From positions 1 through 46,321 of the forward strand of contig QKCO01000016.1 of NCBI GenBank assembly GCA_003245635.1: 46,321 nt of DNA. Reading direction: 5' to 3'. A model generated the notes under the pieces. That model was given only the letters and a program-made list of their open reading frames with translations. It was not told where the DNA came from and ran no database searches. The stretch's first letter is position 1, and each line of letters opens with the position of its first letter. This stretch comes from Treponema sp. (GTDB taxonomy: Bacteria; Spirochaetota; Spirochaetia; Treponematales; Breznakiellaceae). Below are positions 5,207 to 31,861 of this stretch, piece after piece. The translations under genes and the position numbers were made by a program.

Positions 5207-5216
5207 TGAATTCCTC

Positions 5217-6826: not shown

Positions 6827-6842
6827 TCGTTTTCCTCTCTGC

Positions 6843-7388: not shown

Positions 7389-7440
7389 ACCGTCCACCTG
7401 CAAACCCGGCTCGGGATTTACGTCTTACCGTTCGTCGATC

Positions 7441-7470
7441 ACCGGAAAACGATTCTGATGCATGCCGCGC
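7441..7470 (-). promoter_or_regulatory. intercistronic stem-loops downstream of tctC
   Basis: CATGC-CGC-GCATG (7441-7453) overlaps ATGGGCGG-TTAG-CCGCCCAT (7451-7470; 8-bp perfect stem). No immediate U-tract follows on the minus-strand RNA. Confidence 0.35.
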
Positions 7471-7525
7471 ATGGGCGGTTAGCCGCCCATACACGGCAGT
7501 TCCAGATAAGCCAGCGCCCCTTGGC

Positions 7526-8557: not shown

Positions 8558-8792
8558 ACTAGATCCTCCTTAGTTCAACCCTGCAGGATTACTGCTTTAG
8601 TCGACTTTAGAAATCATTTTAATACACTTCTGAATATTGTCAATTTATTTCGCTTTATAATAAATCTATTTTTTGATATAATGAATTCATTTATAGATAA
8701 ATATCGCCTTATTTAAAGAGCTGAGAAACATTCTTGACGGAAAAGTTCCGAGGGAGTAATCTGATTTCACTTTAGTAAGATAGGATTCATAT
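8558..8792. promoter_or_regulatory. AT-rich divergent promoter region (tctC leftwards, gntR rightwards)
   Basis: 235 bp that is visibly far more AT-rich than the rest of the window, lying between the tctC and GntR starts, with multiple TATAAT/TTGAC-like hexamers. Confidence 0.5.
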
Positions 8793-9545
8793 ATGACTGA
8801 AAAGAATTCAAACAAACAAAAACCCTCGATGGATAAAGAACCGAGCGATGCTATCGTCATGGTCCACAACGCTTTGCGGGAAAAAATCATGAACAAGGAA
8901 CTGCTGCCGGGTGAAAAGATCAACCAGATTGCGGAGGCCAACCTACTTCATGTCAGCCGCACACCCGTGGTCAATGCATTGCATCGGCTTGAGTCGGAGG
9001 GCTTGGTAGACCGAACCCAGAATTCAGGTTTTACCGTACACCGCCTATCCATAGGTGAGCTTCAGGAGTTATTCGATCTGCGTGAGGTTTTCGACATCAT
9101 AGTAGCCAACGATTTGGCGATAAACGCTACCGATGAGGAAATCGACGTTCTCGAGAATCTATTTTCCCACTATTTAACGCATCCTGAAGAGTTGACGGTA
9201 GAGACCTACCGTGCGCTGGACCTGGAATTTCATACGCTGCTTGTCAAATACTGCCGCAACAGCATGATGCATAAGATCTACGATAATTTTCAGATACTTG
9301 CGAGAACCTATACGGCCGGACTGATCCGCCACTATACAGAAACGCTGCAGGAACACATGACCATCATAAACGCCTTTCGGCAACACGATCCGAAGGCCGC
9401 GGAAAAGGAAATGCGAGAACACAATGCTAAGACGACCTCTTTGATTCATGAAACCATATCGGGACTCAAGCGAATGGGGCTTGATCCCGGCACGATCCAT
9501 GTCGATGATGTCATGCTTTCGCGAAACGATCGCGCGGCGCCCTAA
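8793..9545 (+). CDS. GntR-family transcriptional regulator (FadR/FCD C-terminal domain)
   Basis: N-terminal winged HTH (GEKINQIAEANLLHVSRTPVVNALHRLESEGLV) plus an FCD-type helical C-terminal domain, 250 aa. Confidence 0.85.
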   Translation: MTEKNSNKQKPSMDKEPSDAIVMVHNALREKIMNKELLPGEKINQIAEANLLHVSRTPVVNALHRLESEGLVDRTQNSGFTVHRLSIGELQELFDLREVFDIIVANDLAINATDEEIDVLENLFSHYLTHPEELTVETYRALDLEFHTLLVKYCRNSMMHKIYDNFQILARTYTAGLIRHYTETLQEHMTIINAFRQHDPKAAEKEMREHNAKTTSLIHETISGLKRMGLDPGTIHVDDVMLSRNDRAAP

Positions 9546-12220: not shown

Positions 12221-14125
12221 ATGAAACGCATTTCTACGTTCGTTGTCGTCGTCAACGCCGCAATCTTCGCGCTCGTGCTCGGCGTCTTTTCCGTGCTCGT
12301 CACCCGGCAATCCGCGTCGATGATCGAAGACGACTCGCGCCAGCTGCTGACCGAATGGACGGAGTCCTGGGGCAAACGGGTCGACGGCATCTTCGCCGAA
12401 CGCTTCGCGTACATCAAATTCTACAAGGACTATATCGCCCGCACGCTGACCCTCGACACGCTCGGCGACGGCAAAGCGCTGCGCGAATACTTCAAGAAGA
12501 TGATCGAAGTCGGCTCCGGAGTGATGGAGAAGGAGCGTTTCCTCGACCTCTACGCGTGGTTCGCCCCCGAGTACACCGACGATGTGCAGCACCTCACGAT
12601 ACAGAGCCTCAAGATGGACGGCAAGCTCGAGTACAAGAGCGATACGCGCTACAAGCGCGCGGACATGGGAGGGGCTGACTGGGCCTGGTTCACCGACGCG
12701 GAAAAGAACGGAAGAACCATCACCGAACCGTACGTCTGGGAAGGCTTCGACGACAAGCTCGTCTCCATGACCGAAGTCCTCGAGATCGCCGGAAAGAAGG
12801 TCGGCGTCGTCGGATCGGACCTGTTCGTCGGATCCTTCGGCAAGGATCTCGACGCGCAGAAGATCCTGAAGACGGGCTATTTCGCGGTTCTAAGCGATTC
12901 GGGAACCCTGCTCTTCCATCCGACGGCGGCGGGCAAGAAGGCGGAGGAAGTTTTCGGCCCCGAAGGGGCGAAGCTCATCGACCGCATCAAAGCGACGAAG
13001 ACGGGTTCGGGCGTCCTCGAGATCAAAATGAACGGTCAGCGTCAGCTGATCGGGTTCAGGACCCTTTCGAGCGGCTGGCGGCTTCTGGCGGTGCCGACCA
13101 TGAGCGAGATCTTCGCGCCCGTCTATCGGCTCATCGCGATGATGGTCCTGTTCTCCCTCATGGCCATCGCCGTCCTCGTGGCGCTTTCGCTGGTCGTCGG
13201 CCGCTCGCTCGCCAAGCCCATCGGTTCGGTGACCCAGCTCCTTTCGGTGATCGCGTCGGGAGATCTCCAGATCGACATCCCCGAAACGCTGCTCGCGCGC
13301 AAGGACGAACTGGGAGCGCTCGCCGCTTCGACCGGCCGGATGGTTGAGAACATAGCCGACATCATCGAGAACGCGAAAGGCGCGTCCGCGGTGGTCCTCT
13401 CCGGCTCGAACGAGATCACCGACGCATCAGCGCAACTCAGCCAGGGCGCTTCCGAGCAGGCGGCCTCCATGGAGGAGGTTTCGAGCTCGATGGAGGAGAT
13501 GGCCGCGAACATCAAGCAGAATTCGGACGGAGCCCAGGAGACCTACTCCATCGCGGCGAAGACGGCGGACGACGCCAAGCGGGGCGGCCAGATGGTCGCG
13601 CAGGCGGTCGAAGCGGTCCGCCGCATCTCCGAGAAGATCGGCATCATAGACGAGATCGCGCGCCAGACGAATCTGCTCGCGCTCAACGCCGCGATCGAAG
13701 CCGCCCGGGCGGGAGACGCCGGCAAGGGCTTCGCGGTCGTCGCGAGCGAAGTGCGCAAGCTCGCCGAACGCAGCCAAGTGGCCGCGGCGGAAATCACCGA
13801 CCTATCGGGAAACACCGTTTCGGTATCGGAGCAGACCCTCGCCATCATCGAGGCCATCGTCCCGAGCATCGAGAAAACCACCGAAATGCTGCAGGAGATA
13901 GCCACCGCCAGCCGCGAGCAGACGGTCGGCGCCGAGCAGATCAACCTCGCGCTCGCGCAACTGGATAAAGTCGTCCAGCAGAACGCGGCTTCTTCCGAGG
14001 AGCTGTCTGCGACCGCGGGCACGCTCAACGGCAAGGCGACCGAACTCGACGAAATCGTATCGTTCTTCAAAATCGGCGGCGGCAAAGACCGAGGCGGCAA
14101 GCTGCTCGAACTGCCGGAGGCGTAG
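12221..14125 (+). CDS. methyl-accepting chemotaxis protein with a Cache-type periplasmic sensor domain
   Basis: Order is N-terminal TM, periplasmic domain, second TM, HAMP, then a conserved MCP signalling domain ([32 protein letters not shown]). Confidence 0.9.
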
Positions 14126-14177: not shown

Positions 14178-15374
14178 TTATTTTTCCGCGTATTCCTTGA
14201 ACTTTCCCAGACCTTCCTCGATCAAGGCCATGTCGATGCCCGAATAGGCTAGGCGCACGTAGCGGCGCGTCTCTCCCGGCAGCGCGCGGCCGAAATGGAG
14301 CCGCGTGCAGAAGGAAACGCCGGTCGTGTGCAGGACATCTTTGCGGAAACCCTCGTAGTCGTCGGCGAATCCCTTGGCCTTCATCAGAGCGGTCACGTCG
14401 GGGTACAGGTAGAAGGTGGCGTCGGGGCGGTAGCAGGTGACGCCGGGGACGGAATTGAGGATGACGGCCGCTCTGTCCCGCCGCTCCTTCAGGATACCGA
14501 TGATCTTCCGCGATCCGCTCTGGTCGCCGGTGAGAGCTTCGATGCCGGCCAACTGGATGAAGTTGGAGGTGCAGGATTCGTCGTTGAGGTTGAGCTTGGC
14601 GATGACGTCGATCACCGACCGGGGTCCGAGCGCGGCGCCCAGGCGCCATCCGGTCATCGCGTACTTCTTGGAGAAGGTGTAGAGGATAATTGAGCGCTCG
14701 GCCATGCCGGGGAAGGATACCAGCGTCTTCGACTTGCCCGAGAAGCGCATGTCGAAATAGGCCTCGTCGCACAGGACGTAAAGGCCGTGCTTCACCGCGA
14801 ACTCCGCGATCGCCTTCAGCTCCGCCTCAGAAGCCTCGGCTCCGGTCGGATTCTGCAGGTCGTTGACGATGAGGAGCCTCGTCTTGGGAGTGACCGCCTT
14901 CTCGAGCGACGCCATGTCGAAGCCGAAATTGTCCTTACCGGGCACGAAGCCGTACGGAACGGCCTTGCCGCCGTGGAACTCTATCTGCGACTCGTAGATC
15001 GGGTAGCCGGGGTTCGGGTAGAGGACTTCGTCGCCGGGGTTCATGAGCGATAGGATGAACTTGCCGATGACCGGCTTCCCGCCGGGCTGGATCGCGACGT
15101 TCGAGGCGTCGAAGGACGTGCCGTGGCTGGCGTTGACGTCGGCGGCGAGCGCTTCCCGGAGTTCGGCGATGCCGGCGTTGGCGACGTAGCCGGTCTTTCC
15201 GTCGAGCATCGCCTTATGTGCCGCCTCGATGATGTTGTCGGGCGTGCGGATATTGATGTCGCCTATGTGGAAGGCGTAGACCTTGTGGCCCTGCGCCGCC
15301 CACTCGCGGGCTTCCGCCGAAACGGCGAACGCGGTTTCCGTGCCGAGCCGTCCGATCCTTTCCGCGTTTTTCAT
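14178..15374 (-). CDS. pyridoxal-phosphate-dependent aminotransferase, class I/II (aspartate aminotransferase family)
   Basis: Start ATG at 15374 (MKNAERIG) with AGGAGG upstream. The family N-x-P-x-N-P-T-G motif (NDLQNPTGA) and PLP-lysine motif (FSKKYAMTGWRLG) are present. Confidence 0.85.
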   Translation of the reverse strand: MKNAERIGRLGTETAFAVSAEAREWAAQGHKVYAFHIGDINIRTPDNIIEAAHKAMLDGKTGYVANAGIAELREALAADVNASHGTSFDASNVAIQPGGKPVIGKFILSLMNPGDEVLYPNPGYPIYESQIEFHGGKAVPYGFVPGKDNFGFDMASLEKAVTPKTRLLIVNDLQNPTGAEASEAELKAIAEFAVKHGLYVLCDEAYFDMRFSGKSKTLVSFPGMAERSIILYTFSKKYAMTGWRLGAALGPRSVIDVIAKLNLNDESCTSNFIQLAGIEALTGDQSGSRKIIGILKERRDRAAVILNSVPGVTCYRPDATFYLYPDVTALMKAKGFADDYEGFRKDVLHTTGVSFCTRLHFGRALPGETRRYVRLAYSGIDMALIEEGLGKFKEYAEK

Positions 15375-15498
15375 GCTGCCTCCTGTCGTATCCGAAATGC
15401 GAATTCCACTGTCGCGCCGCTCGCCGGCGCTGTCAAGAGAAAAGAGCCGCGCCTGCCTCGGGCCTTGCACGGTTCGGCCGACGCGGGAGGCGAAGGGC

Positions 15499-15963
15499 TT
15501 ATTCCGCGGCCCTCGTCTGCATCATGACCGTATGCTCGCCTTCGGCGACGGTCTCGCCGCGCTGATTCACGAGCCGCACCGATTCGACGACGATGCCCCT
15601 CCCGCTCTTGCTGGTGGACCGCTTCGATTCGATGCGCCACTCGACATGCACCGTATCGCCGATGAGCACAGCCTTCTTGAAGCGCCAGGACCACTCGAGG
15701 GATGCGAGGGACGTGCCTTCGAACAGCCCGAGGCGCGACTTGAGGCCTTCGGCGATCGAGAGCCCCAGCAGACCGTGGGCGATCCGGGTGCCGTAGATGC
15801 TCGTTTCCTTGGAGTATTCCTCGTCCGTATGGAGCTGGTTGTAGTCCCCTGTCAAACCCGAATATGCGGCCACGTCCGCTTCGGTGATGGTCCGGCCGGG
15901 GCTCTCGAACTCCTCGCCGACCTTGAAATCCTCGAAATACTTTCCCTGGTGCCGGTATGCCAT
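15499..15963 (-). CDS. MaoC-like (R)-specific enoyl-CoA hydratase / dehydratase (hot-dog fold)
   Basis: Start ATG at 15963 (MAYRHQGKYFEDFKVGE) with AAGGAG upstream. Hot-dog fold motifs (DYNQLHTDEEY...GTRIAHGLL) over 154 aa. Confidence 0.8.
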   Translation of the reverse strand: MAYRHQGKYFEDFKVGEEFESPGRTITEADVAAYSGLTGDYNQLHTDEEYSKETSIYGTRIAHGLLGLSIAEGLKSRLGLFEGTSLASLEWSWRFKKAVLIGDTVHVEWRIESKRSTSKSGRGIVVESVRLVNQRGETVAEGEHTVMMQTRAAE

Positions 15964-15982
15964 TTCAATCTCCTTAGAGGAA

Positions 15983-17068
15983 TTACGGCGTGCTCTTAAT
16001 CGGCGGCGGACAGGTCGATTGCCTGACGACCAGCGGCGCGGGAAGAAACACCCGCTTCGGACCGGCATGCGGGTGCTCGATCGCGTATAGAAGCATGCGG
16101 GCGGCTTCCGCGCCGATGAGCTCGGGACAGGTCGAAATGGTCGTAAGGGGAGGACGCCAGGATGCCGACCAGGCGCTGTCGTCGAACCCGACGACGGAAA
16201 AATCCTTCCCCGCTTCCATCCCGAGGGTGTTGAGCCCGAAGACCACTCCGTAGGCGATGCTGTCGTTGTAGCAGAACGCGGCGGTCGGCGGATCGGACAG
16301 GCGGCGTTCAAGAAGCTCCCGGATCGCCTCGCTCCCTTCATGCAGCGATATGTTGGTGGGAATGTTGAGCGCCGGATCCACGGGAATGCCCGCCTCTTCG
16401 TGGGCGAGCAGATAGCCCCGCTCGCGATCCCCGCGGGGAGAAGCGCTGCAGCTGCCGCCGATGAACGCGATGCGCCGATGCCCGAGGGAGATCAGATGAT
16501 TCACCGCGGAGAACGAGCCTTCCACATTGTTGCCCTCGACATAGCTCGACTTGAGTCCCTTGACGTAGCGGGTGAACATAACGTGAGGGACGCCGCTGCC
16601 GGTCAACGCCGAGAGATCCTGCTTCCTGGTACCGCGCGCGGGACAAATGAGGATGCCGTCGGTGCCGTGCTCGAACATCGCTTCGATCGATTTTCTCTGC
16701 CGCTCGATGCTTTCGGACGTGTTCGCCAGCAGCACGACGCGGCCCGCCTTTTCGAATTCCTTCTCCACGCCGACGATGAGCTCGGCGAAAAACGGGTTGG
16801 TGATATCGGCGACGATCAGTCCGACGGTATGGGATTTCTGCGAGCGAAGCGTGGCGGCTGCGCGGTTGTACACATAACCTAGCTTTTGGATCGATCTAAC
16901 GACGCGGACCCGCGTCTCCTGCGCGACGGCGGTGCTCCCGCGAAGCACGAGCGAAACGGTCGATCTGGATACGCCCGCATCCGTCGCCACGTCGGTGAGC
17001 GTCGCCTTTTTAAGCGTTCGGCCGTTATCCTCCACGATAAATCCCCATTCGAAAAGCTTGTTCGACAA
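15983..17068 (-). CDS. LacI-family transcriptional regulator
   Basis: HTH (ATLTDVATDAGVSRSTVSLVLRG) plus a periplasmic-binding-protein-like sugar-binding domain. The start is uncertain (TTG at 17068 or an internal GTG). Confidence 0.8.
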   Translation of the reverse strand: MSNKLFEWGFIVEDNGRTLKKATLTDVATDAGVSRSTVSLVLRGSTAVAQETRVRVVRSIQKLGYVYNRAAATLRSQKSHTVGLIVADITNPFFAELIVGVEKEFEKAGRVVLLANTSESIERQRKSIEAMFEHGTDGILICPARGTRKQDLSALTGSGVPHVMFTRYVKGLKSSYVEGNNVEGSFSAVNHLISLGHRRIAFIGGSCSASPRGDRERGYLLAHEEAGIPVDPALNIPTNISLHEGSEAIRELLERRLSDPPTAAFCYNDSIAYGVVFGLNTLGMEAGKDFSVVGFDDSAWSASWRPPLTTISTCPELIGAEAARMLLYAIEHPHAGPKRVFLPAPLVVRQSTCPPPIKSTP

Positions 17069-17103
17069 CCCTATCCAGGTTGGATCGGGTTGTCAAGTTT
17101 ACC

Positions 17104-17118
17104 CTCGAACGATTCGAG
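17104..17118. promoter_or_regulatory. candidate LacI-family operator (CTCGAA-CGA-TTCGAG)
   Basis: 6-bp perfect inverted repeat with a central CG, nested inside the outer 7-bp inverted repeat TTGTCAA...TTGACAA, in the divergent lacI/dctP promoter region. Confidence 0.4.
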
Positions 17119-17182
17119 TTTGACAAATCGGAATATGCGTCTTACCCTGATTTAGATCGATCCAATAAACAAGGAGGACTTG

Positions 17183-18211
17183 ATGAAACGCACGCTTTCT
17201 GCATTGGCATTGATCGCCCTCGCGGCGACCCTATCGCTTCCCGTCTTCGCCGGCGGTTCGAAGGACACGGCACCTTCCGCGGCGCCCGCCCCGCAGACGA
17301 TCAAGCTCGTCGGCCATACCATGCTCCCGAAGGAGCATGTCTATTACCGGACGATCGAAAAATTCGCCGAGCTGGTTAACCAATACTACAAGGGGCCGGT
17401 CAAGATCGAATGGGATCTCCACCACTCGGGCGATATCGGCACGGAAAAGGACGCCATCGAGTACATGATCCAGGGCACGGCCATCGACTTCTCGATCATC
17501 TCCCCCGCGTGGATCGCCAATTGGGACAAGACCGCGTCCTTCATCGACGCGCCCTTCATATTCAAGAGCGTCGACCATTGGAACAAGTGCATCGACGCCG
17601 ACGTGTTCGCGCCCATCCAGAAAACCATGATCGGCAAGGGCGTCCGCTTCATCGGCTACGGCGGCGGCGGCGTGCGCAACATCATCAGCAAGAAGGAAAT
17701 CCGCACTATCGATCAGTTCCCGACCCTGCAGATGCGCGTCCAAGGATCCCCGCTGCACCAGGCAGCCTTCTCCGCGACCGGCATCAAGGCGACTCCGATG
17801 GACTACATGGAAGTCTACAACGCCATCAAGACCGGCGTCCTCGACGCGCTGGAGAACGAGCCCGCGGGCCTTCAGGGCATGAAGTTCTATGAAGTCGCGC
17901 CGTACTACATCCTGACCGCCCACCAGATCACGACCCGCATCCTCGGCTTCAGCGAAAAGAAATTCCAGAGTCTGCCGAAAGATCTCCAGGATGCCGTTCT
18001 GAAAGCGGGCAAGGAAGCCTCGGCTTTCCACCGCAAGACCGAAGTCGCCGAAGGCGACGGCATCCTCAAACTCCTTGTCGAAAAGAACGGACTGAAGATC
18101 ATCCCCTTCGACAACACCGAGATGCGCCGCCGCGCCATGCCGGCGGTGGAGAAATTCGCCAAGGATAACGGGGCCTTCGAAGTCCTCGAAGCGATCAACG
18201 CCGTCAACTGA
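17183..18211 (+). CDS. dctP: TRAP transporter substrate-binding protein DctP family
   Basis: ATG at 17183 with AAGGAGG 5 nt upstream; signal peptide with AGGSKD; DctP-family fold; 342 aa. Confidence 0.9.
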   Translation: MKRTLSALALIALAATLSLPVFAGGSKDTAPSAAPAPQTIKLVGHTMLPKEHVYYRTIEKFAELVNQYYKGPVKIEWDLHHSGDIGTEKDAIEYMIQGTAIDFSIISPAWIANWDKTASFIDAPFIFKSVDHWNKCIDADVFAPIQKTMIGKGVRFIGYGGGGVRNIISKKEIRTIDQFPTLQMRVQGSPLHQAAFSATGIKATPMDYMEVYNAIKTGVLDALENEPAGLQGMKFYEVAPYYILTAHQITTRILGFSEKKFQSLPKDLQDAVLKAGKEASAFHRKTEVAEGDGILKLLVEKNGLKIIPFDNTEMRRRAMPAVEKFAKDNGAFEVLEAINAVN

Positions 18212-18313
18212 CGATCGGCGGCCCGCGACTCGAACAGTCTATTGAACGCTCACGGATCCGGGGGTTAAAAGCCCTCGGATCTTTGTTCCAAGCCGATCAC
18301 ACGGAAGGTTCGC

Positions 18314-18835
18314 ATGTACTTTAAATTCTGCAACGCAGTTAGTTTCATTCTCCAGAAAATCTTGATCATTCTCGGAATCATCCTGCTCGCCGCCGTCACC
18401 CTGCAGGTCGCGGGCCGCTACGTGCCCTTCATTCCCCGCTGGCTCTGGCCGCTCGAAGTGGCGAACTGGGCCATGATATGGATGGTGTTCATCGGCGCCA
18501 GCATGGGGCTCCGCGAAGGACGCCACTTCATGGTCGACCTGTTCCTGGGCAAAAGGCTCCCCGAGCCGTTCTTTATTTTCCTCAGGGTGGTCTACTACCT
18601 GATCATCGGAAGCGTCACCCTCGTGTTCATCGTATTCGGCTACACGTATCTAGTAAAATGGGGCTTCATCCAATCCTCGGAAATAATGGGAATCAATATG
18701 GGATTCCTTTACCTTTCGGTGCCCTTGTCCGGCGTCATCTGGCTGCTGTTCCTTATAGAGAACATCATCAAGGATCTGAGCGGTAAAACGAACGTGGCGC
18801 ACACCGCGCTCGACGCGGCCCAGGGGGCTCTGTGA
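18314..18835 (+). CDS. dctQ: TRAP transporter small permease DctQ
   Basis: 4-TM protein of about 170 aa immediately upstream of, and overlapping, the large permease. Confidence 0.85.
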   Translation: MYFKFCNAVSFILQKILIILGIILLAAVTLQVAGRYVPFIPRWLWPLEVANWAMIWMVFIGASMGLREGRHFMVDLFLGKRLPEPFFIFLRVVYYLIIGSVTLVFIVFGYTYLVKWGFIQSSEIMGINMGFLYLSVPLSGVIWLLFLIENIIKDLSGKTNVAHTALDAAQGAL

Positions 18836-20142
18836 TGACGCTGACCGCAGGAACCGTTTTCTTCATTATGTTCGGCACGCTGCTGGTGCTCATCGCGCTC
18901 CGGGTCCCCGTCGCCTTCGCCCTCGCGTTCGCCGTGGTGCCCATCCTGATCATGACCCCGACGGTCACGCCCATCATGCTCCTGCAGCGCATGATGATGC
19001 AGTACGGATCGTTCATACTCCTGGCGATACCGTTCTTCGTGCTGGCCGCGAACCTCATGAACGTGGCGGGGATCACAAACCAGCTCCTGAAGCTGTCCGG
19101 CGCAATGGTCGGGCATCTTCCCGGAGGGCTCGGACACGTCAACGTAGTGGTGAGCATGATCTTCGCCGGCATCAGCGGTTCATCGAACGCCGACGCCGCG
19201 GGCATCGGCGGCGTGCTCATCCCGGCGATGCGGAAGGAAGGCTACGACGTCAATTTCAGCGTGGCGGTCACCGCCTGCTCCGCGGTCATGGGCGTCATCA
19301 TCCCTCCCAGCATCATCATGGTCGTCTGGGGCGGCGTCATGAACACGTCCGTGTCGGGCCTATTCCTGGCGGGCATCATTCCCGGCGTGATGATCGGTCT
19401 CCTGCAGATGGGATTGGTCTACCTCTACGCCGTAAAACGCCATTATCCGCGCAATTCGCAGTTCTCCTTCAAGGCCCTGGTCGAAGCCTTCAAGTCCTCC
19501 ATCCTAGCGCTGTTCACCCCGATCATCATCGTCGGCGGCGTCGTGTTCGGCCTGGTCACCCCGACCGAAGCGTCCCTGATCGCGGTGCTCTACGCCATGG
19601 CGCTCGGCTTCTTCGTCTTCAAGACCCTGAACGTGAAGACCTTCATCTCCGTGCTGGGAGACACCCTCAAACTCTCCTCGGTGGTGCTGTTCTGCGTGGG
19701 GACCGCGTCGATCTACGCCTGGGTCATGGCCTACTACAAGATTCCGGCCTTCCTGGTGAACGTCATGAGCGCCATGACGACCAATCCCTCCATCATGCTG
19801 GTCCTGATCGTCGGCGTATTCCTGATCGTCGGCATGTTCATCGACGCTGTTCCTGCGATCATCATCTTCGCCCCGCTGCTCAAGCCCCTCACCGAAGCGG
19901 TCGGCATCCATGCGCTGCATTTCGCCGTCGTCGGCTGCGTCGCCCTTTCCTACGGTCTGATCACGCCGCCGTACGGCCTGTGCCTGCTCATCGCCAGCGA
20001 AATCGGCGGCATCAACTGCATGCAGCCCCTCAAGGAAGTGGCCTCGTTCCTGCTGGCCATGCTCGTGGTCCTGATCCTCATGATCTTCGTTCCGGACATC
20101 ACCCTCGGCATCCCGAGGCTGCTCATGCCCAGCCTGTTCTGA
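18832..20142 (+). CDS. dctM: TRAP transporter large permease DctM
   Basis: 436-aa polytopic protein with DctM-family motifs; its start overlaps the dctQ stop (ATGA). Confidence 0.9.
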   Translation: MMTLTAGTVFFIMFGTLLVLIALRVPVAFALAFAVVPILIMTPTVTPIMLLQRMMMQYGSFILLAIPFFVLAANLMNVAGITNQLLKLSGAMVGHLPGGLGHVNVVVSMIFAGISGSSNADAAGIGGVLIPAMRKEGYDVNFSVAVTACSAVMGVIIPPSIIMVVWGGVMNTSVSGLFLAGIIPGVMIGLLQMGLVYLYAVKRHYPRNSQFSFKALVEAFKSSILALFTPIIIVGGVVFGLVTPTEASLIAVLYAMALGFFVFKTLNVKTFISVLGDTLKLSSVVLFCVGTASIYAWVMAYYKIPAFLVNVMSAMTTNPSIMLVLIVGVFLIVGMFIDAVPAIIIFAPLLKPLTEAVGIHALHFAVVGCVALSYGLITPPYGLCLLIASEIGGINCMQPLKEVASFLLAMLVVLILMIFVPDITLGIPRLLMPSLF

Positions 20143-20154
20143 CCGGAGCGTTCG

Positions 20155-21678
20155 ATGCAGAAACCTATACTTTCCGCCGCCGAGGCGGCGGCCCTGGTCC
20201 CCGACGGGGCCTGGGTCGCCGTCCAAGGGTCCGGCGGCGGCGTGGGGGAACCGACGGCCCTCCTCCGGGCCCTCGGAACCCGCTACCGCGAAAGCGGCGC
20301 GCCGAAGGATCTCACCCTCGTCCATTCCACCGGACTCGGCGATAAGAAGGAAATAGGCTTGGACTATCTGGCGATTCCCGGCCTGGTCAAACGGGACATC
20401 GCCGGCCACTTGGGCATGGCCCCCGCCATGGGAAAGCTCATACTGGAAAACAAGCTCGAATGCTACAACTTCCCCCAGGGAGTCCTTTCGCACATGTACC
20501 GGGCGGTCGCGGCCAAGACCCCCGGTGTCATCACGAAGGTGGGACTGGGGACCTACATCGATCCCCGCCTGGAAGGCGGCAAGATGAACGCCGCGACCAA
20601 GGAGGACCTGGTGGAGGTCCTGACCGTCAAAGGGGAGGAATACCTCTTTTGGCCGCGCTTCTCCTTCGACGTCGCCTTCGTGCGGGGCACCACGGCGGAC
20701 GCCAAGGGCAACATCACCTTCGAAGAGGAAGGCGCCTTCCTGGAGAATCTGTCCATCGCCCAAGCGGCCAAGAATTCGGGCGGAATCGTGGTGGCCCAGG
20801 CGAAATATCTGGCCCAGGCGGGCACCCTCGACGCCCAGCAGGTCAAAATTCCCGGCATCTACGTGGACTATATCGTCGTGGACAGCGAGCAGAAGCAGAC
20901 CTGCCTGGACGTCTACAACCCCGCCTACTGCGGCAGGATCAAGGTCCCCCGGGACAGCATTCCGCCGATTCCATTAGACGAGAGAAAGGTCGTCGCCCGC
21001 CGCGCGGCCAAGGAACTGTTTCCGGGCGCGGTGGTGAACCTCGGCGTCGGGTTCCCGAGCGGGATCGCCGCGGTCGCGACGGAAGAAGGCTTCATCGACG
21101 ATTTCACGCTGACCGTCGAGCAGGGGGCCGTCGGCGGGACTCCGGTGGGCGGGGTCGTGTTCGGCGTCGCGTACAACGCGGAAGCCATCATCCCCATGGA
21201 TGCCCAGTTCGCCTTCTACGACGGGGGCGGCCTCGACGTCGCCTTCCTCGGCATGGCGGAGGCCGATGCCCGGGGAAACGTCAATTCCAGCAAGGTCGGA
21301 GCGATGCTGGCCGGCTGCGGAGGCTTCATCAACATCACCCAGAACGCGAAAGAGGTCGTATTCTGCGGTACTTTCCGCGCCAAGGATTTCGCCTGCCGCG
21401 TCGGCGGCGGCAGCCTCTCGATCGAGAGCGAGGGGAAATTCCCCAAGTTCGTCGAGCGGGTCAATCAAGTCACCTTCTCCGGGGACTACGCCCGAAAGAA
21501 GGGCCAGCGGGTGCTCTACGTCACCGAGCGGGCCGTGTTCGAACTGTTCGCCGACGGCGTCCATCTGATCGAGGTCGCTCCCGGCATCGACCCGGTGAGG
21601 GACGTGGTCGACCTCATGGAATTCAAGCCCATCGTCGGTCCCGACTTGAAAACCATGGACCAGGAGCTGTTCCGATGA
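20155..21678 (+). CDS. family-I CoA-transferase, fused alpha/beta type (propionate/acetate CoA-transferase YdiF/Pct-like)
   Basis: 507 aa with typical fused family-I CoA-transferase N- and C-terminal halves (SGGGVGEP...; ...GMAEADARGNVN...). Confidence 0.8.
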   Translation: MQKPILSAAEAAALVPDGAWVAVQGSGGGVGEPTALLRALGTRYRESGAPKDLTLVHSTGLGDKKEIGLDYLAIPGLVKRDIAGHLGMAPAMGKLILENKLECYNFPQGVLSHMYRAVAAKTPGVITKVGLGTYIDPRLEGGKMNAATKEDLVEVLTVKGEEYLFWPRFSFDVAFVRGTTADAKGNITFEEEGAFLENLSIAQAAKNSGGIVVAQAKYLAQAGTLDAQQVKIPGIYVDYIVVDSEQKQTCLDVYNPAYCGRIKVPRDSIPPIPLDERKVVARRAAKELFPGAVVNLGVGFPSGIAAVATEEGFIDDFTLTVEQGAVGGTPVGGVVFGVAYNAEAIIPMDAQFAFYDGGGLDVAFLGMAEADARGNVNSSKVGAMLAGCGGFINITQNAKEVVFCGTFRAKDFACRVGGGSLSIESEGKFPKFVERVNQVTFSGDYARKKGQRVLYVTERAVFELFADGVHLIEVAPGIDPVRDVVDLMEFKPIVGPDLKTMDQELFR

Positions 21679-22454
21679 AATCCTCCGTCCGTGCGCGAAT
21701 CGAAGACGGCGTCGGCCGCATCCTGATGGAGTGCTCTGTCCCCGAGAAACCGCCGACCTTGGATTACGAGGTATTGGACGGCTTGGAAGCGGCGATCGAG
21801 GGGTTCGCAGATGCAGCGTCGGAAGGCGCCCTCAGAGCGGTCACCGTTGAAAGCGCGTCCGAAAAATACTTCGTGGTCGGCGCGAACCTGGAGGCCCTGA
21901 AGAAGATAGACAAGGACAGCATCCGCGCGTGGGTCGAGCGGGGGCACCGCGTGTTCAACGCGCTTGCGGATCTCCCGGTGCCCGTTATCGCCAAGGTTTC
22001 GGGATTCGCCCTCGGGGGCGGCCTCGAGCTGGCGATGGCCTGCGATTTCATCGCCGCCTCCGAGGGAGCCCGGTTCGGGCTTCCGGAAGCTGGCCTCGGA
22101 TTCGTGCCGGGTTGGGGCGGGATTTCGCGGCTCGCCTCCCGCGTCGGAGTGCCGCGGGCAAAGGAACTCCTCGCCACGGGGCGGATCGTGGACGCGGCCG
22201 AAGTCTACCGGCTGGGCATCGCGGACTTCGTCGGCGACGCCGCGGAGCTCGACGCCTACCTGGGCCGAACCCTGGATTCGATCAAGCGGAATTCCGCCCT
22301 GGCGATCTCGCTGACCAAAAAAATATTGAACGCGGAATCCGAGCGCCGCGCGCGGTCGGTCTTGGACGAAGCGGCCGCTTCCGCGGTATGCCTGGCCTCG
22401 GGAGATACCGCGGATCGTCTGGCGGCTTTCTTCAAGAGCAGGGAAAAGAAATGA
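21675..22454 (+). CDS. enoyl-CoA hydratase/isomerase (crotonase) family protein
   Basis: Start ATG at 21675 overlapping the previous stop. Crotonase oxyanion-hole region (KVSGFALGGGLELAMACDFIAASEGARFGLPE). Confidence 0.8.
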   Translation: MKSSVRARIEDGVGRILMECSVPEKPPTLDYEVLDGLEAAIEGFADAASEGALRAVTVESASEKYFVVGANLEALKKIDKDSIRAWVERGHRVFNALADLPVPVIAKVSGFALGGGLELAMACDFIAASEGARFGLPEAGLGFVPGWGGISRLASRVGVPRAKELLATGRIVDAAEVYRLGIADFVGDAAELDAYLGRTLDSIKRNSALAISLTKKILNAESERRARSVLDEAAASAVCLASGDTADRLAAFFKSREKK

Positions 22455-23314
22455 GAATAGACGGAACGACGGTCGTCTGCGCGTCATTGGGGTACCCGAA
22501 CAAGCAATCGATATCGCCCGTCCTGCACAACGCCGGGTATCGGGCGTTCGGCCTCAACAACGTATTCCTGGCGCTGGAGGTCGAGCCGGACCGGCTCGAA
22601 GAGGCGGTTCTCGGAGCGCGGGCGCTCGGATTCAGGGGCTGCAGCGTCACGAAGCCGTTCAAGGAAGCGGTCCTTCCGCTACTGGACCGTCTGGACGAAA
22701 CGGCTTCCGCCATCGGAGCGGTCAACACGATCCTGAACGAAGGCGGCGTTCTCTCAGGCTACAATTCCGATTGGATCGGAGCCGTCCGGGCGATCGAAGG
22801 AGCTGCCGGCGTCCGCCCCTCGGATGGACCGATGCCCGAACGGCTCTCGCTGGCGGGCAAGCGCGCCTGCGTCGTCGGGGCGGGCGGCGCGGGAAAAGCG
22901 ATCGTCTGGGGATTGGTCCGCGCCGGCTGCCGCGTCGTTCTTTACAACCGCGATCAGGATAAGGGCCGGGCCGTAGCCGGTTCCCTAGCGGTCGAGTTCG
23001 GCGGCGCTCCTTCCGCCCTCGGCGAAGGCGGCCCATTCGACATCCTGGTCAACGCGACCTCCGTCGGAATGGGCGACGCCGCGGCGCCCTCGCCCATTCC
23101 GGCATCGGCTTTCCGGTGGAAGCCGACGGTCCTGGACGCGGTCATCCACCCCCGAACGACCGCGCTGCTGAGAGCCGCCCGCGCTGCCGGCTGCGCCGCG
23201 GTACCCGGAGCGGCGATGCTTCTCTTCCAGGGCTTGTTCCAATTCGAACTCTTCACCGGGCGCAAGCCGCCGATCGAGACAATGCGGAGAGCCTTGGACC
23301 GGGCGCTCCGCTGA
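22451..23314 (+). CDS. shikimate/quinate dehydrogenase (AroE) family protein
   Basis: Start ATG at 22451 overlapping the previous stop. AroE-family motifs (SISPVLHNAGY...NTILNEGGVLSGYNSDWIG...VVGAGGAGKA). Confidence 0.8.
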   Translation: MRIDGTTVVCASLGYPNKQSISPVLHNAGYRAFGLNNVFLALEVEPDRLEEAVLGARALGFRGCSVTKPFKEAVLPLLDRLDETASAIGAVNTILNEGGVLSGYNSDWIGAVRAIEGAAGVRPSDGPMPERLSLAGKRACVVGAGGAGKAIVWGLVRAGCRVVLYNRDQDKGRAVAGSLAVEFGGAPSALGEGGPFDILVNATSVGMGDAAAPSPIPASAFRWKPTVLDAVIHPRTTALLRAARAAGCAAVPGAAMLLFQGLFQFELFTGRKPPIETMRRALDRALR

Positions 23315-23363: not shown

Positions 23364-25373
23364 CTATCCGCCGCTCCTCCTGGGCTTGTACAGATCGCCT
23401 TCGCGGAAGGCCCGCCAGACGTTTTCGAACCAATCGTCGGATTCGGGAATCGGACGCCTCGGCAGCCATCGGGTCGCGAATCGGGCGCCGTCCCACCGCG
23501 TTTCCTGCAAGTATCCGAGCAATTCGCGTTTCTCGGGAATCGCATTCCACGCAGGATCGAGGGCCGCGTCGAGGCTTTCCCCGTCGGGACCCGCGACGAT
23601 CGCCGAACCGCGCGCTCCGCCGCCCGCCTCCGCGTACGCCGCGCACGCGTCCAAATACGCGGCGTGCGCGAGGACGAGCTGGCGAGCCCGCAACAAGCGA
23701 ACCAGGTCGCTGCGCGAGCCGACGACGATAGACGGAAAACGGTTCACCTGGTCGATCGCGTCCGACGCCGCCCGCCTCGCTTCCGCGGCTACCCGGATGA
23801 TCCCGCCGTGCTTATCCATCCGGGAACGGAATTCGCATTCGTACGCGTCCAGGCTTTCAGCGCTTTCGGCTGGACGCAGCGCGGTCGAAATGACGCGGAA
23901 AAGAGACTCGACGCGCGGTGCGGCGACGGAGCGCCAGGGAGCTTCCGCCGCGTCGCCGCGGCCGACGGCGCCGATTATCCGGCGCGCCGCGCGGAGGGCC
24001 CCGACCTGCCCGGAGTTCAGCGCCGCCCCTCCGGGACGATACACGCCATGGGAACCGTTGACCTCGCCGACGGGAAAGAGCCGGTCGATATTCACGGACT
24101 CCCACCAGGAATCGGCCGCGAGGCCTCCGTTGTTGTGCTGCGCGCATACGGCGATTTCGAGCATGCGCCTGGAGAGGTCGATGCCGTTCCGGGCGTAATG
24201 CTCGACGGCGATCGGATTCATCCGGCGCAGGCGATCGAGCGGCGCGCCGCTTGTCGCGCCCGACTTTTCGAGGTAGGCGAGGGCTTCGGGAGAGAGGCTC
24301 GCGGGATTCCAGCCGGACGGGTTCCTCGTGAAATCCATATAGACGCGCCGGCCGCGGACGAGCCGCTCGCGGTGCACGAGCAGATCTATCAGGGATGAGC
24401 CGTGGTCCCGTACTTTCCGGGGATCGAAGGGCCACTGATAGCCCTTCAGGAAGACGGCGCTGTCCCGCGCGCCGGGAGAAGGAAAAAACGGCGAAAGGAA
24501 CTCCTCCTCGTCTCCGTCCGGGCCTACGGAGACGTAGCGCGGCACGGCCTGCTGATAGGTGCCCGACACGTTCCATCGATATTCGATCGACGCCAGTCCG
24601 TATTGGCTTTCGGTCAAGTTCACGCAGGCGGCGCCCGCTTCGATCGCGAGGCCTATCGCCCCGCTCTGCACCGAGGGGTATACGGAAGACTCGTATAGGC
24701 CGCCGGGCCCGCCGACGCCGAAAACGACCGCGTCCGCGACGATGAGCCGCAGCCCGAACGAAGGATCGGACAGGCGGGACTCGTCCAGGAATAGCGCTCC
24801 GTAGACTCGTCCGAACTCCGCAACGAGGGAGACGGCGTGCAGCCCCTCGAGGATAGGGACTCGACGGGCGCGGACCTCGGAAAGGAGGCGCTCAACCATG
24901 ACTTTGGAGGTATACGGTCCGATGGATGTGCCGCGCTGCCGAGGATCGTGATCGGTCTTGTATCCGACGAAGCCGCCGAATTCGTTCATCGGGAAGGGAA
25001 CGCCTATCGAAACGAGATGGAAAAAGGCTTCCGCCGATCCGACGGCTTCCGCGAGGGCGATGTCTCCATGGACGGCCCCGCCCCGCCAGAGCGCGTCGGC
25101 CATTTCGTACGCGGAATCGCCGGAGCGGTCGGCGAGGGAAAGCCGATAATAGGTCTGCTTGTCCGAACCGGTATTGTAGGAAGTGCCGCCGGAGAGCGAT
25201 TCGGTGGCAATAACTATGTCGCGGGCGACGTTTTGAGGATCGGCCGCCGCGGCGAACGCGGCCAAGCGATCGGCGGCGGCCAGGGACGCCGCCCCGGAAC
25301 CGATGACGAGCACGCCGCAGCGCTCGACCGGAACCTCGATGCCGCCGACGATCAGGGAATCGCATCGCGTCAT
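23364..25373 (-). CDS. FAD-binding oxidoreductase, fumarate reductase / succinate dehydrogenase flavoprotein-like (AprA/NadB-like)
   Basis: 669 aa with an N-terminal dinucleotide-binding motif (GVLVIGSGAASLAAA) and the flavoprotein-family middle region. Confidence 0.7.
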   Translation of the reverse strand: MTRCDSLIVGGIEVPVERCGVLVIGSGAASLAAADRLAAFAAAADPQNVARDIVIATESLSGGTSYNTGSDKQTYYRLSLADRSGDSAYEMADALWRGGAVHGDIALAEAVGSAEAFFHLVSIGVPFPMNEFGGFVGYKTDHDPRQRGTSIGPYTSKVMVERLLSEVRARRVPILEGLHAVSLVAEFGRVYGALFLDESRLSDPSFGLRLIVADAVVFGVGGPGGLYESSVYPSVQSGAIGLAIEAGAACVNLTESQYGLASIEYRWNVSGTYQQAVPRYVSVGPDGDEEEFLSPFFPSPGARDSAVFLKGYQWPFDPRKVRDHGSSLIDLLVHRERLVRGRRVYMDFTRNPSGWNPASLSPEALAYLEKSGATSGAPLDRLRRMNPIAVEHYARNGIDLSRRMLEIAVCAQHNNGGLAADSWWESVNIDRLFPVGEVNGSHGVYRPGGAALNSGQVGALRAARRIIGAVGRGDAAEAPWRSVAAPRVESLFRVISTALRPAESAESLDAYECEFRSRMDKHGGIIRVAAEARRAASDAIDQVNRFPSIVVGSRSDLVRLLRARQLVLAHAAYLDACAAYAEAGGGARGSAIVAGPDGESLDAALDPAWNAIPEKRELLGYLQETRWDGARFATRWLPRRPIPESDDWFENVWRAFREGDLYKPRRSGG

Positions 25374-28347: not shown

Positions 28348-29445
28348 ATGTGGTTCCGGAAGCAGCCCGCGGAAAAGCGGCTGATCAAAAACGAGCCAAC
28401 GCAGCGCAAAAGGACCGACTTTTCGGTCAACGCCGTCGGCATCGCCTTCTTCGCCGCCCTCCTTTCCTTCGCACTCGCGGTCAGGATGCTGGTCGGCCGT
28501 TCGCCGACGCTCATCGATCTCTCGGTCCTGGTCGCCACCCCGATCGCGGTCATGGGGATAATGGCGCTCTTCCCCCGATGGACCGTCGCGGCCAAGGTGC
28601 TGATCCTCGTAGCGATCGCCGCCGCGGCCCTCAATTTCGGAGAAGCGAGTCTCGCCTTCGCGTTCGCCTTCACCGGCGCCATCCTCGCCCCCGCCGTCCA
28701 GAAAATGGAAGAATGGGAGCGGGCGATCATCCTCCGCTTCGGCGCCTTCCACCGCGTGCGCGGCCCCGGGCTTTTCCTCGTGTTCCCCTTCGCCGACCGC
28801 ATCGCCAAGACGGTTGACCTCCGCATCCGGGTGACGGACTTTTCCGCCGAAACGACGCTCACCAAGGATTCGGTGACCGTCACCGTGGACGCCCTCTGCT
28901 TCTGGATGGTGTGGGACGCCGAGAAGGCCGTGCTCGAGGTCCAGGACTACCAGGAGGCGGTGGTGCTCTCCTCCAAGACGGCGCTCCGCGACGCGATCAG
29001 CAAGCACGACTTGTCGGCCTTCCTCGAGCACGGCGACGCGATCGAGGAGCGCATACGGGAGGAGGTCGACAAGAAGACGACCGAATGGGGCATCACGGTC
29101 CAGCACATCGAGATCACCGACATCCAGATTCCCGAAGCCCTGCAGGATTCCCTGAGCCGCCTGGCGCAGGCCGAGCGGGAGAAGCAGGCGCGCGTGTACC
29201 TGGCGGCGGCCGAGATCGAGATCGCCGAAAAGCTCGAGCAAGCCGCCCGGATCTACGACGCGAACGGGACGGCGATGAAGCTGAAGAATCTTTCCATATT
29301 GAACGAAGGCCTCAGGGCGGGCAATTCGATGATGCTCGTGCCCAATTCGATCACCGAGGAGCTCAGGACAAAGGACCTGTTCGGGCTCGAAGCGCTCGCG
29401 GAGCGCCGGCGGGAGGCCAAGGAGGACGAGCATGGCGGTAGTTGA
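28348..29445 (+). CDS. SPFH/band-7 (stomatin/prohibitin-like) domain membrane protein
   Basis: N-terminal multi-TM region, then a band-7 core (ERAIILRFGAF...VDLRIRVTDFSAETTLTKDSVTVTVDA...) and a coiled-coil tail. Confidence 0.75.
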   Translation: MWFRKQPAEKRLIKNEPTQRKRTDFSVNAVGIAFFAALLSFALAVRMLVGRSPTLIDLSVLVATPIAVMGIMALFPRWTVAAKVLILVAIAAAALNFGEASLAFAFAFTGAILAPAVQKMEEWERAIILRFGAFHRVRGPGLFLVFPFADRIAKTVDLRIRVTDFSAETTLTKDSVTVTVDALCFWMVWDAEKAVLEVQDYQEAVVLSSKTALRDAISKHDLSAFLEHGDAIEERIREEVDKKTTEWGITVQHIEITDIQIPEALQDSLSRLAQAEREKQARVYLAAAEIEIAEKLEQAARIYDANGTAMKLKNLSILNEGLRAGNSMMLVPNSITEELRTKDLFGLEALAERRREAKEDEHGGS

Positions 29446-30115
29446 GACGACGAACCTGGTGAAGGACTACGCCCTCAACGGGCTGTCGGTGCACGCCCTG
29501 CGCGGCGTGAGCCTCTCGTTCGAGAAGGGCGAATTCGCGGCGGTAGCCGGCCCCTCCGGCAGCGGCAAATCGACGTTCCTGCACCTGGTCGGCTGTCTGG
29601 ACGCGCCGACCGCGGGGAAAGTCTCCATCGAGGGAACCGATGTCTCGGCGCTTTCGAAAAAGGAGCTCGCCCTCCTGCGGCGCGCGAACATCGGCTTCAT
29701 ATTCCAGGCGTACAACCTGATTCCGGTGCTGACCGCGGAGGAGAACGTGTCGCTTCCGCTCACCCTCCTGGGGCAAAGCAAGGCGGAGGCGCGTTCCCGC
29801 GCAGGCGAGGCGCTGGCCGAGGTCGGCTTGGCCGACTACGCCAAGCGGCGGCCCAAGGAGATGTCCGGCGGCCAGCAGCAGCGGGTCGCCATCGCCCGGG
29901 CGCTGGTGAAGAAGCCCTCCCTCATCCTGGCCGACGAGCCGACGGCGAACCTCGACTCCAAGACCGGCATGGAAATCCTCGAGCTCATGCTCGCGCTCAA
30001 CCGGAGCGTCGGCACCACCTTCATATTCTCCACCCACGACAAGATGGTCATGGACTACGCCCGGCGGCTGATCCTCCTCAAGGACGGTGCGGTCGATTCG
30101 GAGACGGTCAAATGA
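29432..30115 (+). CDS. ABC transporter ATP-binding protein (MacB/LolD-type)
   Basis: Walker A GPSGSGKST, signature LSGGQQQRVAIARAL, Walker B ILADEPT. Confidence 0.9.
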   Translation: MAVVETTNLVKDYALNGLSVHALRGVSLSFEKGEFAAVAGPSGSGKSTFLHLVGCLDAPTAGKVSIEGTDVSALSKKELALLRRANIGFIFQAYNLIPVLTAEENVSLPLTLLGQSKAEARSRAGEALAEVGLADYAKRRPKEMSGGQQQRVAIARALVKKPSLILADEPTANLDSKTGMEILELMLALNRSVGTTFIFSTHDKMVMDYARRLILLKDGAVDSETVK

Positions 30116-31851: not shown

Positions 31852-31861
31852 GGAAAGCGCT

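Follow-up and report, generated by a model that had tools for sequence, protein, structure and literature searches.

A conserved LacI-associated operon in a Treponema genome and its possible role in the CoA-assisted dehydration of a cyclic polyhydroxy acid

Which compound is taken up and processed when a bacterium places the genes of a tripartite ATP-independent periplasmic (TRAP) transporter in line with those of a coenzyme A (CoA) transferase, a crotonase-family enzyme and a relative of shikimate dehydrogenase? This question is raised by positions 14178-23314 of contig QKCO01000016.1 from Treponema sp. (GenBank assembly GCA_003245635.1), whose full 46,321 nucleotides are called the window here. 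An initial annotation of this segment named nine genes, comprising dctPQM and the CoA-transferase, crotonase and AroE-family genes on one strand and the lacI, MaoC dehydratase and aminotransferase genes on the other, and suggested a CoA-dependent route for an alicyclic acid such as quinate or shikimate. The present analysis points to a LacI-repressed operon for an imported hydroxy-carboxylate, most plausibly a six-membered-ring polyhydroxy acid of the pyranuronate type rather than quinate or shikimate. This reading is tentative and is given a probability of about 0.4.

Profile matches of the window proteins to Pfam and NCBIfam place all nine genes in the families originally named for them (Table 1), and a survey of genome context, which had been suggested as a check, finds the module again in related loci with unrelated flanks. 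A core composed of the TRAP transporter, a YdiF-type CoA-transferase and the crotonase is present in at least 10 other loci from Spirochaetales and unrelated genomes, most of which also encode the MaoC hydratase and the LacI repressor. The complete order, with the MaoC gene and lacI diverging from dctPQM and the CoA-transferase, crotonase and AroE-like genes, is kept in loci L014, L015 and L003 and partly kept in L004, L007 and L105. Because the same gene set returns with different flanks in nine loci (L014, L015, L003, L004, L007, L105, L107, L109 and L111), the arrangement is beyond chance, and its recurrence supports the earlier view of a conserved, repressor-controlled and TRAP-fed catabolic operon. 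Orthologues of DctP share 55-90% identity across the related loci, those of LacI 45-81% (L014, L015, L003, L007 and L111), and the AroE-like proteins of L014 and L015 are 70-73% identical to the window protein. Similarly, MaoC orthologues (68-87% identity) adjoin lacI or dctP in L003, L014, L015 and L107.

Further loci were reached by using orthologues of the binding protein as queries. The locus from a 7.3-Mb genome (L107) has a MaoC gene (68% identity) divided from dctP (64%), dctQM and the CoA-transferase (71%) and crotonase (55%) genes, which are followed after a 232-bp gap by genes for DhaK, DhaL and DhaM. On a 147-kb contig of a metagenome-assembled genome (MAG), the set is rearranged and placed under another type of regulator, in the order GntR, CoA-transferase, crotonase, DctPQM, AroE and a short-chain dehydrogenase/reductase (SDR) (L109). 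Glycyl radical enzyme and activase genes follow the crotonase gene in a 4.5-Mb genome (L111), where lacI is divided from the dctPQM, CoA-transferase and crotonase genes, and they stand between dctPQM (55/44/64%) and an AroE-like gene on a metagenome contig (L103). A low-GC metagenome contig (L022) encodes LacI, DctPQM, a FucI-like isomerase, MaoC, CoA-transferase and crotonase in this order; a Spirochaetales MAG (L002) holds the core alone, without AroE; and CoA-transferase, crotonase and MaoC genes occur without AroE in L011, L077 and L079. A metagenome scan with the crotonase returned mainly generic crotonases and was informative only for L021-L023, L077 and L079. Overall, the transporter, CoA-transferase and crotonase form the core, and this core is repeatedly joined by MaoC, by a dehydrogenase of the AroE family or SDR type and by a glycyl radical enzyme. 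The dehydrogenase slot is interchangeable, as it is occupied by a canonical-type AroE plus an SDR in L109, by an SDR in L008 and by an SDR with the operator motif in L111.

The aminotransferase, which had been counted as part of the cluster, lies outside the conserved unit and was rejected as a pathway member. It is absent beside MaoC in L003, L014, L015 and L107, and an unrelated FAD/iron-sulfur gene pair abuts MaoC in L014 and L015. A block of Band_7, ABC, FtsX-MacB and LolA-like (TP_0789-like) genes at window positions 28348-33904 is syntenic with L014 positions 14487-20879 and with L015, whereas the genes between this block and the operon differ between the window and these two loci; the borders of the module thus seem to be set by function and not by simple synteny. 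The nearest genomes to the window are Spirochaetales/Treponemataceae MAGs, and the same DNA is also found on a Logan contig.

What chemistry might be carried out is indicated by the catalytic residues of the core enzymes. Over its full length, the CoA-transferase shares 45% identity with E. coli YdiF, and its TVEQG motif aligns with TVE(333)TG of YdiF, such that the catalytic glutamate (YdiF E333) is intact; against the FadX model NF052271 it scores 400 bits, below the cut-off of that model. Both catalytic glutamates of the Clostridium crotonase 5z7r have aligned counterparts in the window crotonase, located in its GGGLELAM and FGLPEAGLG motifs. In family and structure comparisons, this protein is matched best by (de)hydratases of short-chain enoyl-CoA, 3-hydroxybutyryl-CoA and 3-hydroxypropionyl-CoA, and the best 25 of its 74 NCBIfam matches include no BadI or MenB model, nearly all being enoyl-CoA hydratases or generic crotonases. 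Because both hydratase glutamates are kept, this protein is most simply regarded as an ordinary (de)hydratase, and together with the short-chain hydratase matches they rule out the BadI/Oah-type ring-opening function that had been proposed. The hydratase-2 motif of the MaoC protein, read from the sequence as YSGLTGDYNQLH, retains the Asp and His and has Gln in place of Pro. In Betaproteobacteria MAGs (Accumulibacter and Burkholderiales), 75%-identical CoA-transferases are encoded without a crotonase (L005 positions 5819-7384 and L006 positions 2576-4090), suggesting horizontal transfer of the transferase.

No thiolase, acyl-CoA dehydrogenase or electron transfer flavoprotein (ETF) was found among the called genes of L014, L015, L103, L107, L109 and L111, and neither a thiolase nor an acyl-CoA dehydrogenase was found among the window neighbours scanned. 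Their absence from the six loci argues against a pathway resembling beta-oxidation or the Bad pathway, and favours a scheme in which CoA does no more than activate the acid for (de)hydration. Likewise, the related loci having gene calls with Pfam annotation yielded no dehydroquinase, ring hydrolase or dienoyl-CoA reductase.

The AroE-like dehydrogenase departs from its canonical relatives in a way that might reflect its substrate. In an alignment of 126 homologues, nearly all canonical enzymes, among them the AroE-AroK fusions, E. coli AroE and YdiB, share a P[IV]xHSxSP loop, an NTD motif and Tyr215, with this Tyr present in 72 of 73 sequences. The window protein keeps K65, N86, D102 and Q244 and has lost His13 and Tyr215; its loop reads PNKQSISP, with a Lys/Arg gained at position 12, Tyr215 is replaced by Ile, and NTD has become NSD through the change of T101 to Ser. 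All module-linked copies in the alignment (P0002, P0003, P0005 and those of L003, L004 and L007) follow the pattern PN[RK]xxxxP, carry Ile, Phe or Val instead of Tyr215 and mostly NSD instead of NTD, and keep Lys65, Asn86, Asp102 and Gln244. In a neighbour-joining tree, the types that lack this Tyr (PN[RK], the SdhL-like xRPSxFG and KQN) fall together in a single clade of 51-53 sequences, from which canonical enzymes are absent. The PN[RK] lineage appears to be rare, since a profile run against 1.84 billion cluster representatives (50% identity) gave about 7 such proteins among the best 150 matches. Scores against the relevant models are 249.7 for NF001319 (cut-off 252), and 120.6 and 101.6 for the YdiB models NF009390 (349) and NF010631 (515), all below cut-off. 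These features suggest a ring polyol substrate whose carboxylate end is held differently.

A purely biosynthetic role for this protein is unlikely, and a housekeeping aroE was set aside as an explanation given the active sites of the 126 homologues, the tree, a second AroE-family gene with canonical residues located 6 kb away in L007, and the retention of AroE in L109 after rearrangement. The AroE of L109 belongs to a different AroE-family lineage with canonical Ser/Ser/Tyr motifs, and it accompanies the same TRAP, CoA-transferase and crotonase set. Thus, the proposed tie between an AroE-family dehydrogenase and the YdiF-type CoA-transferase and crotonase survives both the rearrangement and the regulator swap in that locus. 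When this second lineage is considered together with the E. coli K-12 genes ydiN-ydiB-aroD-ydiF-ydiO, the association of AroE-family with YdiF-family proteins seems to have arisen more than once. Convergent to the AroE-like gene of the window is the gene for a 669-amino-acid FAD_binding_2 flavoprotein (23364-25373, minus strand) that distantly resembles fumarate reductase and L-aspartate oxidase. It is absent from L014 and L015, and a functional link to the AroE-like gene may exist; in an unrelated 6.5-Mb genome, a 53%-identical flavoprotein (L016 positions 4474-6456) is encoded two genes from a PN[RK]-type AroE (P0008) and adjoins 2-hydroxyacid and GFO/IDH/MocA dehydrogenase genes.

Evidence for repressor control comes from a palindrome that differs from the one first put forward. 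The original candidate, CTCGAAcgaTTCGAG, is indeed present between two back-to-back TTGACA boxes, the -35 boxes at 17091-17096 on the minus strand and 17120-17125 on the plus strand. However, orthologous intergenic regions lack it, the spacer around it is much shorter in L014 and L015, and at least one match with up to two mismatches occurs in 35 of 100 shuffles. It is therefore probably not the LacI operator, and a conserved 14-mer was favoured over it. When the window was searched for TTGGATCGATCCAA with up to two mismatches, its 46 kb gave two matches only, TTAGATCGATCCAA and TTGGATCGATCTAA, against an expected 0.24. Before dctP, a motif of this type occupies the same position in L014 and L015, where it is perfect, as well as in L004 and L003; the L007 version has three mismatches. 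It also recurs inside lacI (L014, L015 and L007) and ahead of the CoA-transferase gene (L003 and L004). In the fetched loci, about 1 Mb in total, orthologous modules contain most of the matches, and the few elsewhere each have two mismatches.

Consequently, TTAGATCGATCCAA is the best candidate for the LacI operator; this palindrome is even, has a central CG and lies by the promoter, and the LacI protein combines an N-terminal helix-turn-helix with a domain like periplasmic binding proteins. In L111, the variant TTGTAACGTTCCAA precedes dctP and its reverse complement precedes the SDR gene upstream of lacI, which implies that this SDR belongs to the regulon. The back-to-back TTGTCAA...TTGACAA boxes are conserved in L014, L015, L007, L003 and L002, and a scan for consensus promoters and terminators gave nothing above shuffle expectation, calling neither of the two promoters inferred here. 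An inverted repeat (14-3-14, 93% complementary, 17064-17094) reading GACAACCCTATCCA ggt TGGATCGGGTTGTC overlaps the inferred lacI promoter and 5' end and includes a TTGGATCG half-site.

The binding protein and the neighbouring genes provide hints regarding substrate class. The best solved relative of DctP is the Sulfitobacter EFI-510292 protein 4nx1/4ovp (E 4e-70, 39% identity, TM-score 0.80-0.90; the AlphaFold2 model of DctP has a mean confidence, pLDDT, of 92), and the next are SiaP, DctPAm and 4mhf, which are binders of sialic acid or other sugar acids. Of these, 4mhf (Polaromonas Bpro_3107) binds glucuronate and galacturonate (PMC7660916). A C4-dicarboxylate specificity finds no support, as the top solved relatives bind sugar acids and the C4-dicarboxylate binder 9dsy ranks 50th. 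R165 and R185 of DctP are invariant across 38 orthologues and are candidates for the arginine (R147 in SiaP) with which TRAP binding proteins pair the carboxylate of their ligand. Among neighbouring genes, one for an MR_MLE protein of the enolase superfamily, similar to acid-sugar dehydratases and cycloisomerases, directly adjoins the module in L004 and L009; a FucI-like isomerase is encoded inside the L022 operon; UxuA, an SDR and a TAL_FSA-like gene adjoin the 75%-identical CoA-transferase of L005 (an Accumulibacter MAG); and IolM/IolO-like genes precede the L109 operon.

Enzymes of the crotonase and MaoC families add or remove water at the alpha,beta-bond of an acyl-CoA. Quinate carries a hydroxyl on the alpha-carbon and a CH2 at the beta-position, and shikimate has an alpha,beta double bond and no beta-hydroxyl. 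In a pyranuronate, by comparison, the alpha-carbon is C5, with a hydrogen, and the beta-carbon is C4, with a hydroxyl; thus, a uronyl-CoA would be a natural substrate for crotonase or MaoC. The order of steps, the recycling of CoA and the substrate class that we infer are as follows. The acid would be imported by DctPQM and converted by the YdiF-type transferase to its CoA thioester, from which water would be removed across the alpha,beta-position by crotonase and MaoC, acting with opposite stereospecificity; in the case of a uronate, H5 and the C4 hydroxyl would leave, and two hydratases of opposite stereochemistry could handle different C4/C5 epimers. The CoA might then be passed to the next substrate molecule, serving only as a transient activating handle, and an NAD(P)-dependent redox reaction of the ring polyol, or of the keto compound formed from it, would be catalysed by the AroE-like enzyme.

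A 4,5-unsaturated uronate is the oxa-analogue of the shikimate skeleton, with a ring oxygen in place of C6H2, and this resemblance would explain the recruitment of an AroE-family enzyme. Such a uronate would open to a 4-deoxy-5-keto-uronate, which known pathways reduce or isomerise to 2-keto-3-deoxygluconate (KDG), and this opening would make sense both of a reductase from the AroE or SDR family and of the FucI-like isomerase. The most specific version of this scheme, in which a uronyl-CoA is beta-eliminated by crotonase or MaoC according to its C4/C5 configuration and then processed by the AroE-family enzyme, and in which a glycyl radical diol dehydratase in some genomes contributes an alternative or extra deoxygenation, would be a route not described before but is unlikely when taken by itself. 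A genuine CoA-dependent quinate/shikimate pathway in anaerobes would be nearly as novel.

Several considerations weigh against a pyranuronate-type substrate. An identity of 39% does not fix the ligand specificity of DctP, the ligands with which 4nx1/4ovp was crystallised are only presumptively D-taluronate and D-mannuronate, and sugar genes in the neighbourhood may be a coincidence in saccharolytic genomes. No precedent for a uronyl-CoA intermediate or such a route was found in the literature searched, and the AroE-like protein passes the TIGR00507 model (210 against a cut-off of 200.2). The presence of two independent AroE-family lineages beside the module, together with the E. coli ydiB-aroD-ydiF genes, fits substrates of the shikimate/quinate type equally well. 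Furthermore, the model explains neither the glycyl radical enzymes of L103 and L111, nor the DhaKLM genes of L107, nor the altered carboxylate site of the AroE-like enzyme, which leaves room for a hydroaromatic, deoxy-sugar-acid or other route. The L103 glycyl radical enzyme resembles B12-independent glycerol/diol dehydratases (633 bits to 1r8w, Cys loop GCDE), and that of L111 is of a second subfamily (35% identical, GCVE). Glycyl radical enzyme and activase genes (L103 positions 4492-8770, L111 15277-18569 and L019 6241-11351) adjoin an AroE-like gene, the TRAP-CoA-transferase-crotonase set or both, and the AroE-like neighbours of diol-dehydratase-type glycyl radical enzymes are of the PN[RK] or SdhL type.

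The anaerobic route for quinate, shikimate or hydroxycyclohexanecarboxylate that was first proposed for this locus would proceed from TRAP import and AroE-like redox through CoA-transferase activation and MaoC/crotonase (de)hydration to eventual ring opening or aromatisation. It can appeal to the two AroE lineages that accompany orthologous TRAP, CoA-transferase and crotonase genes (PN[RK] in the window, canonical in L109), to the E. coli K-12 genes that run in one direction from ydiN to ydiO, and to the retention of the ring-hydroxyl-binding residues K65, N86, D102 and Q244. Removal of ring hydroxyls could be the task of the diol-dehydratase-type glycyl radical enzymes in L103 and L111, and the formation of cyclohexanecarboxyl-CoA from shikimate in Streptomyces collinus reportedly passes through CoA esters. 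This route nevertheless is improbable when the canonical, not BadI/Oah-like, hydratase is considered along with the lack of dehydroquinase, ring hydrolase, thiolase, acyl-CoA dehydrogenase and dienoyl-CoA reductase in the related loci with gene calls. With no beta-hydroxyl in quinate or shikimate, only hydration of the double bond of shikimoyl-CoA would fit; the binding protein groups with sugar-acid binders, and L002 and L107 hold the core without any AroE.

The AroE-less sets of L011, L077 and L079 would fit a short-chain module, in which 3-hydroxybutyrate, 3-hydroxypropionate or crotonate would be activated by the CoA-transferase and MaoC and crotonase would interconvert (R)- and (S)-3-hydroxyacyl-CoA via enoyl-CoA for fermentation, with a biosynthetic aroE merely co-transcribed. 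YdiF/Pct-type transferases favour short acyl groups, the best crotonase matches are short-chain (de)hydratases as noted above, and the AroE-like protein passes TIGR00507. Even so, this possibility is distinctly unlikely: the AroE-like protein belongs to the non-canonical clade without Tyr215, its link to the module outlasts rearrangement in L109, an SDR with the same operator motif accompanies the AroE-less module of L111, and both the LacI-type regulator and the resemblance of the binding protein to sugar-acid binders fit poorly. A linear 2-deoxy or 3-hydroxy sugar acid of the deoxyribonate type might instead be degraded in the manner of beta-oxidation, with MaoC and crotonase epimerising or hydrating the thioester, the AroE-like enzyme or an SDR oxidising it, and cleavage elsewhere yielding acetyl-CoA and a C3/C4 fragment. 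There is precedent in the Klebsiella michiganensis deoxyribonate pathway with its acyl-CoA intermediates (PMC6365646), and supportive context in the DhaK/DhaL/DhaM genes after the crotonase gene of L107, the 3-ketoacyl-reductase-type SDR of L109, which scores above cut-off, and the FGGY kinase, transketolase and RpiB genes near L111. However, no thiolase or lyase occurs in any locus with gene calls, the 232-bp gap between the crotonase gene and dhaK in L107 would permit separate operons, oxidation of acyl-CoAs is not known for the AroE family, and the relatives of the binding protein bind pyranose-form acids, making this explanation very unlikely.

No characterised pathway that matches the operon was found in the literature searched, in agreement with the earlier remark that the pathway is poorly described, and no paper was found that links AroE-family enzymes with CoA-transferases, glycyl radical enzymes or TRAP systems. 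The E. coli ydiN-ydiB-aroD-ydiF-ydiO genes likewise place a transporter, an AroE-family dehydrogenase and a YdiF-type CoA-transferase side by side, but they include a major facilitator superfamily transporter, dehydroquinase, acyl-CoA dehydrogenase and ETF and no crotonase or MaoC, and YdiB has the canonical Ser/Ser/Tyr carboxylate site whereas the window protein lacks Tyr215. In the Bad pathway of Rhodopseudomonas palustris (BadK, BadH and BadI), a hydratase of the crotonase family and a dehydrogenase likewise act on an alicyclic acid in the form of its CoA thioester. Activation there relies on a ligase and the dehydrogenase is an SDR, in place of the transferase and AroE-family enzyme of the window, which has no BadI-type hydrolase and no acyl-CoA dehydrogenase. 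The K. michiganensis deoxyribonate pathway (Price et al. 2019, PMC6365646) similarly handles a sugar acid as a CoA thioester and has a CoA-transferase in its cluster, which differs from the window operon in encoding a CoA synthetase, beta-hydroxyacyl-CoA dehydrogenase, thiolase and glycerate kinase and in lacking both hydratases and an AroE-family enzyme. SdhL (H. influenzae HI0607, PDB 1npy) shares with the AroE-like protein the AroE fold, the Lys/Asp dyad, the missing carboxylate-binding Tyr and the same tree clade, with an xRPSxFG loop instead of PN[RK]xxxxP. TRAP systems for uronates and sugar acids (4nx1/4ovp, 4mhf and SiaP) resemble the operon in their DctP-family binding protein, that of the window being 39% identical to 4ovp. 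These uronate and sialate systems feed isomerase or reductase routes, and to our knowledge none is tied to CoA-transferase or hydratase genes.

If a cyclic polyhydroxy acid is indeed dehydrated as proposed, the operon would represent a new way for anaerobes to bring ring-shaped plant or algal acids, either uronates or hydroaromatics, into metabolism; CoA would then serve for reusable activation and not for beta-oxidation. It would also give a physiological role to the SdhL-related, Tyr-less branch of shikimate dehydrogenases, whose function has been open for about 20 years, and might account for ydiF being a long-standing neighbour of ydiB/aroD in E. coli. With so few genes and a conserved candidate operator, the system lends itself to direct tests in vitro.

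Table 1. Genes and putative control elements of the segment (window coordinates)
Feature	Positions	Strand	Basis or location
Class I/II aminotransferase	14178-15374	-	Pfam/NCBIfam
MaoC-type (R)-specific enoyl-CoA hydratase, 154 amino acids	15499-15963	-	PF01575, 74.8 bits
LacI-family repressor	15983-17035	-	LacI helix-turn-helix and Peripla_BP_1/3 domains
Second operator-like site TTGGATCGATCTAA	16886-16899		Inside 5' part of lacI
Inferred lacI promoter, TTGACA-17 nt-TAGGGT	17068-17096	-	Read from sequence
Palindrome first proposed as operator, CTCGAAcgaTTCGAG	17104-17118		Between the two TTGACA boxes
Inferred dctP promoter, TTGACA-17 nt-TACCCT	17120-17148	+	Read from sequence
Operator-like palindrome TTAGATCGATCCAA, 14 bp, central CG	17152-17165		4 nt after dctP -10, before ribosome-binding site
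dctP, TRAP solute-binding protein, 342 amino acids, signal peptide	17183-18211	+	PF03480
dctQ, TRAP small membrane subunit	18314-18835	+	PF04290
dctM, TRAP large membrane subunit	18832-20142	+	PF06808; TIGR00786, 379 bits (cut-off 268)
Fused family-I CoA-transferase, YdiF/Pct/FadX type, 507 amino acids	20155-21678	+	YdiF alignment
Crotonase-family enoyl-CoA (de)hydratase, 259 amino acids	21675-22454	+	PF00378
AroE-family NAD(P) dehydrogenase, non-canonical, 287 amino acids	22451-23314	+	Shikimate_dh_N and SDH_C

The layout of these genes agrees in part with the ATGA start/stop overlaps described previously. Such overlaps exist between the CoA-transferase and crotonase genes (21675-21678) and between the crotonase and AroE-like genes (22451-22454), and the crotonase and AroE-like genes are accordingly predicted to be translationally coupled to the gene that precedes each; no overlap joins dctM to the CoA-transferase gene, where a 12-nt gap is found instead. 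The dctQ/dctM overlap reads GTGATGA. On the opposite strand, the MaoC gene and lacI are separated by 19 nt and probably form one transcript. The lacI reading frame is open to a TTG at 17068, and the GTG at 17035 is preferred as the start because a GGGGA ribosome-binding site precedes it and the inferred promoter is upstream of it.

Beyond the segment, a methyl-accepting chemotaxis protein gene (12221-14125, plus strand) is convergent with the aminotransferase gene and ends 53 nt from it, and its proximity to the module is not conserved. A separate acid-catabolic island at 406-9545 contains genes for a GntR/FCD regulator and a TctCBA tripartite tricarboxylate transporter, along with a 294-amino-acid open reading frame and genes for 3-hydroxyisobutyrate-dehydrogenase-like, URO-D-like, RraA-like aldolase and D-2-hydroxyacid dehydrogenase proteins.

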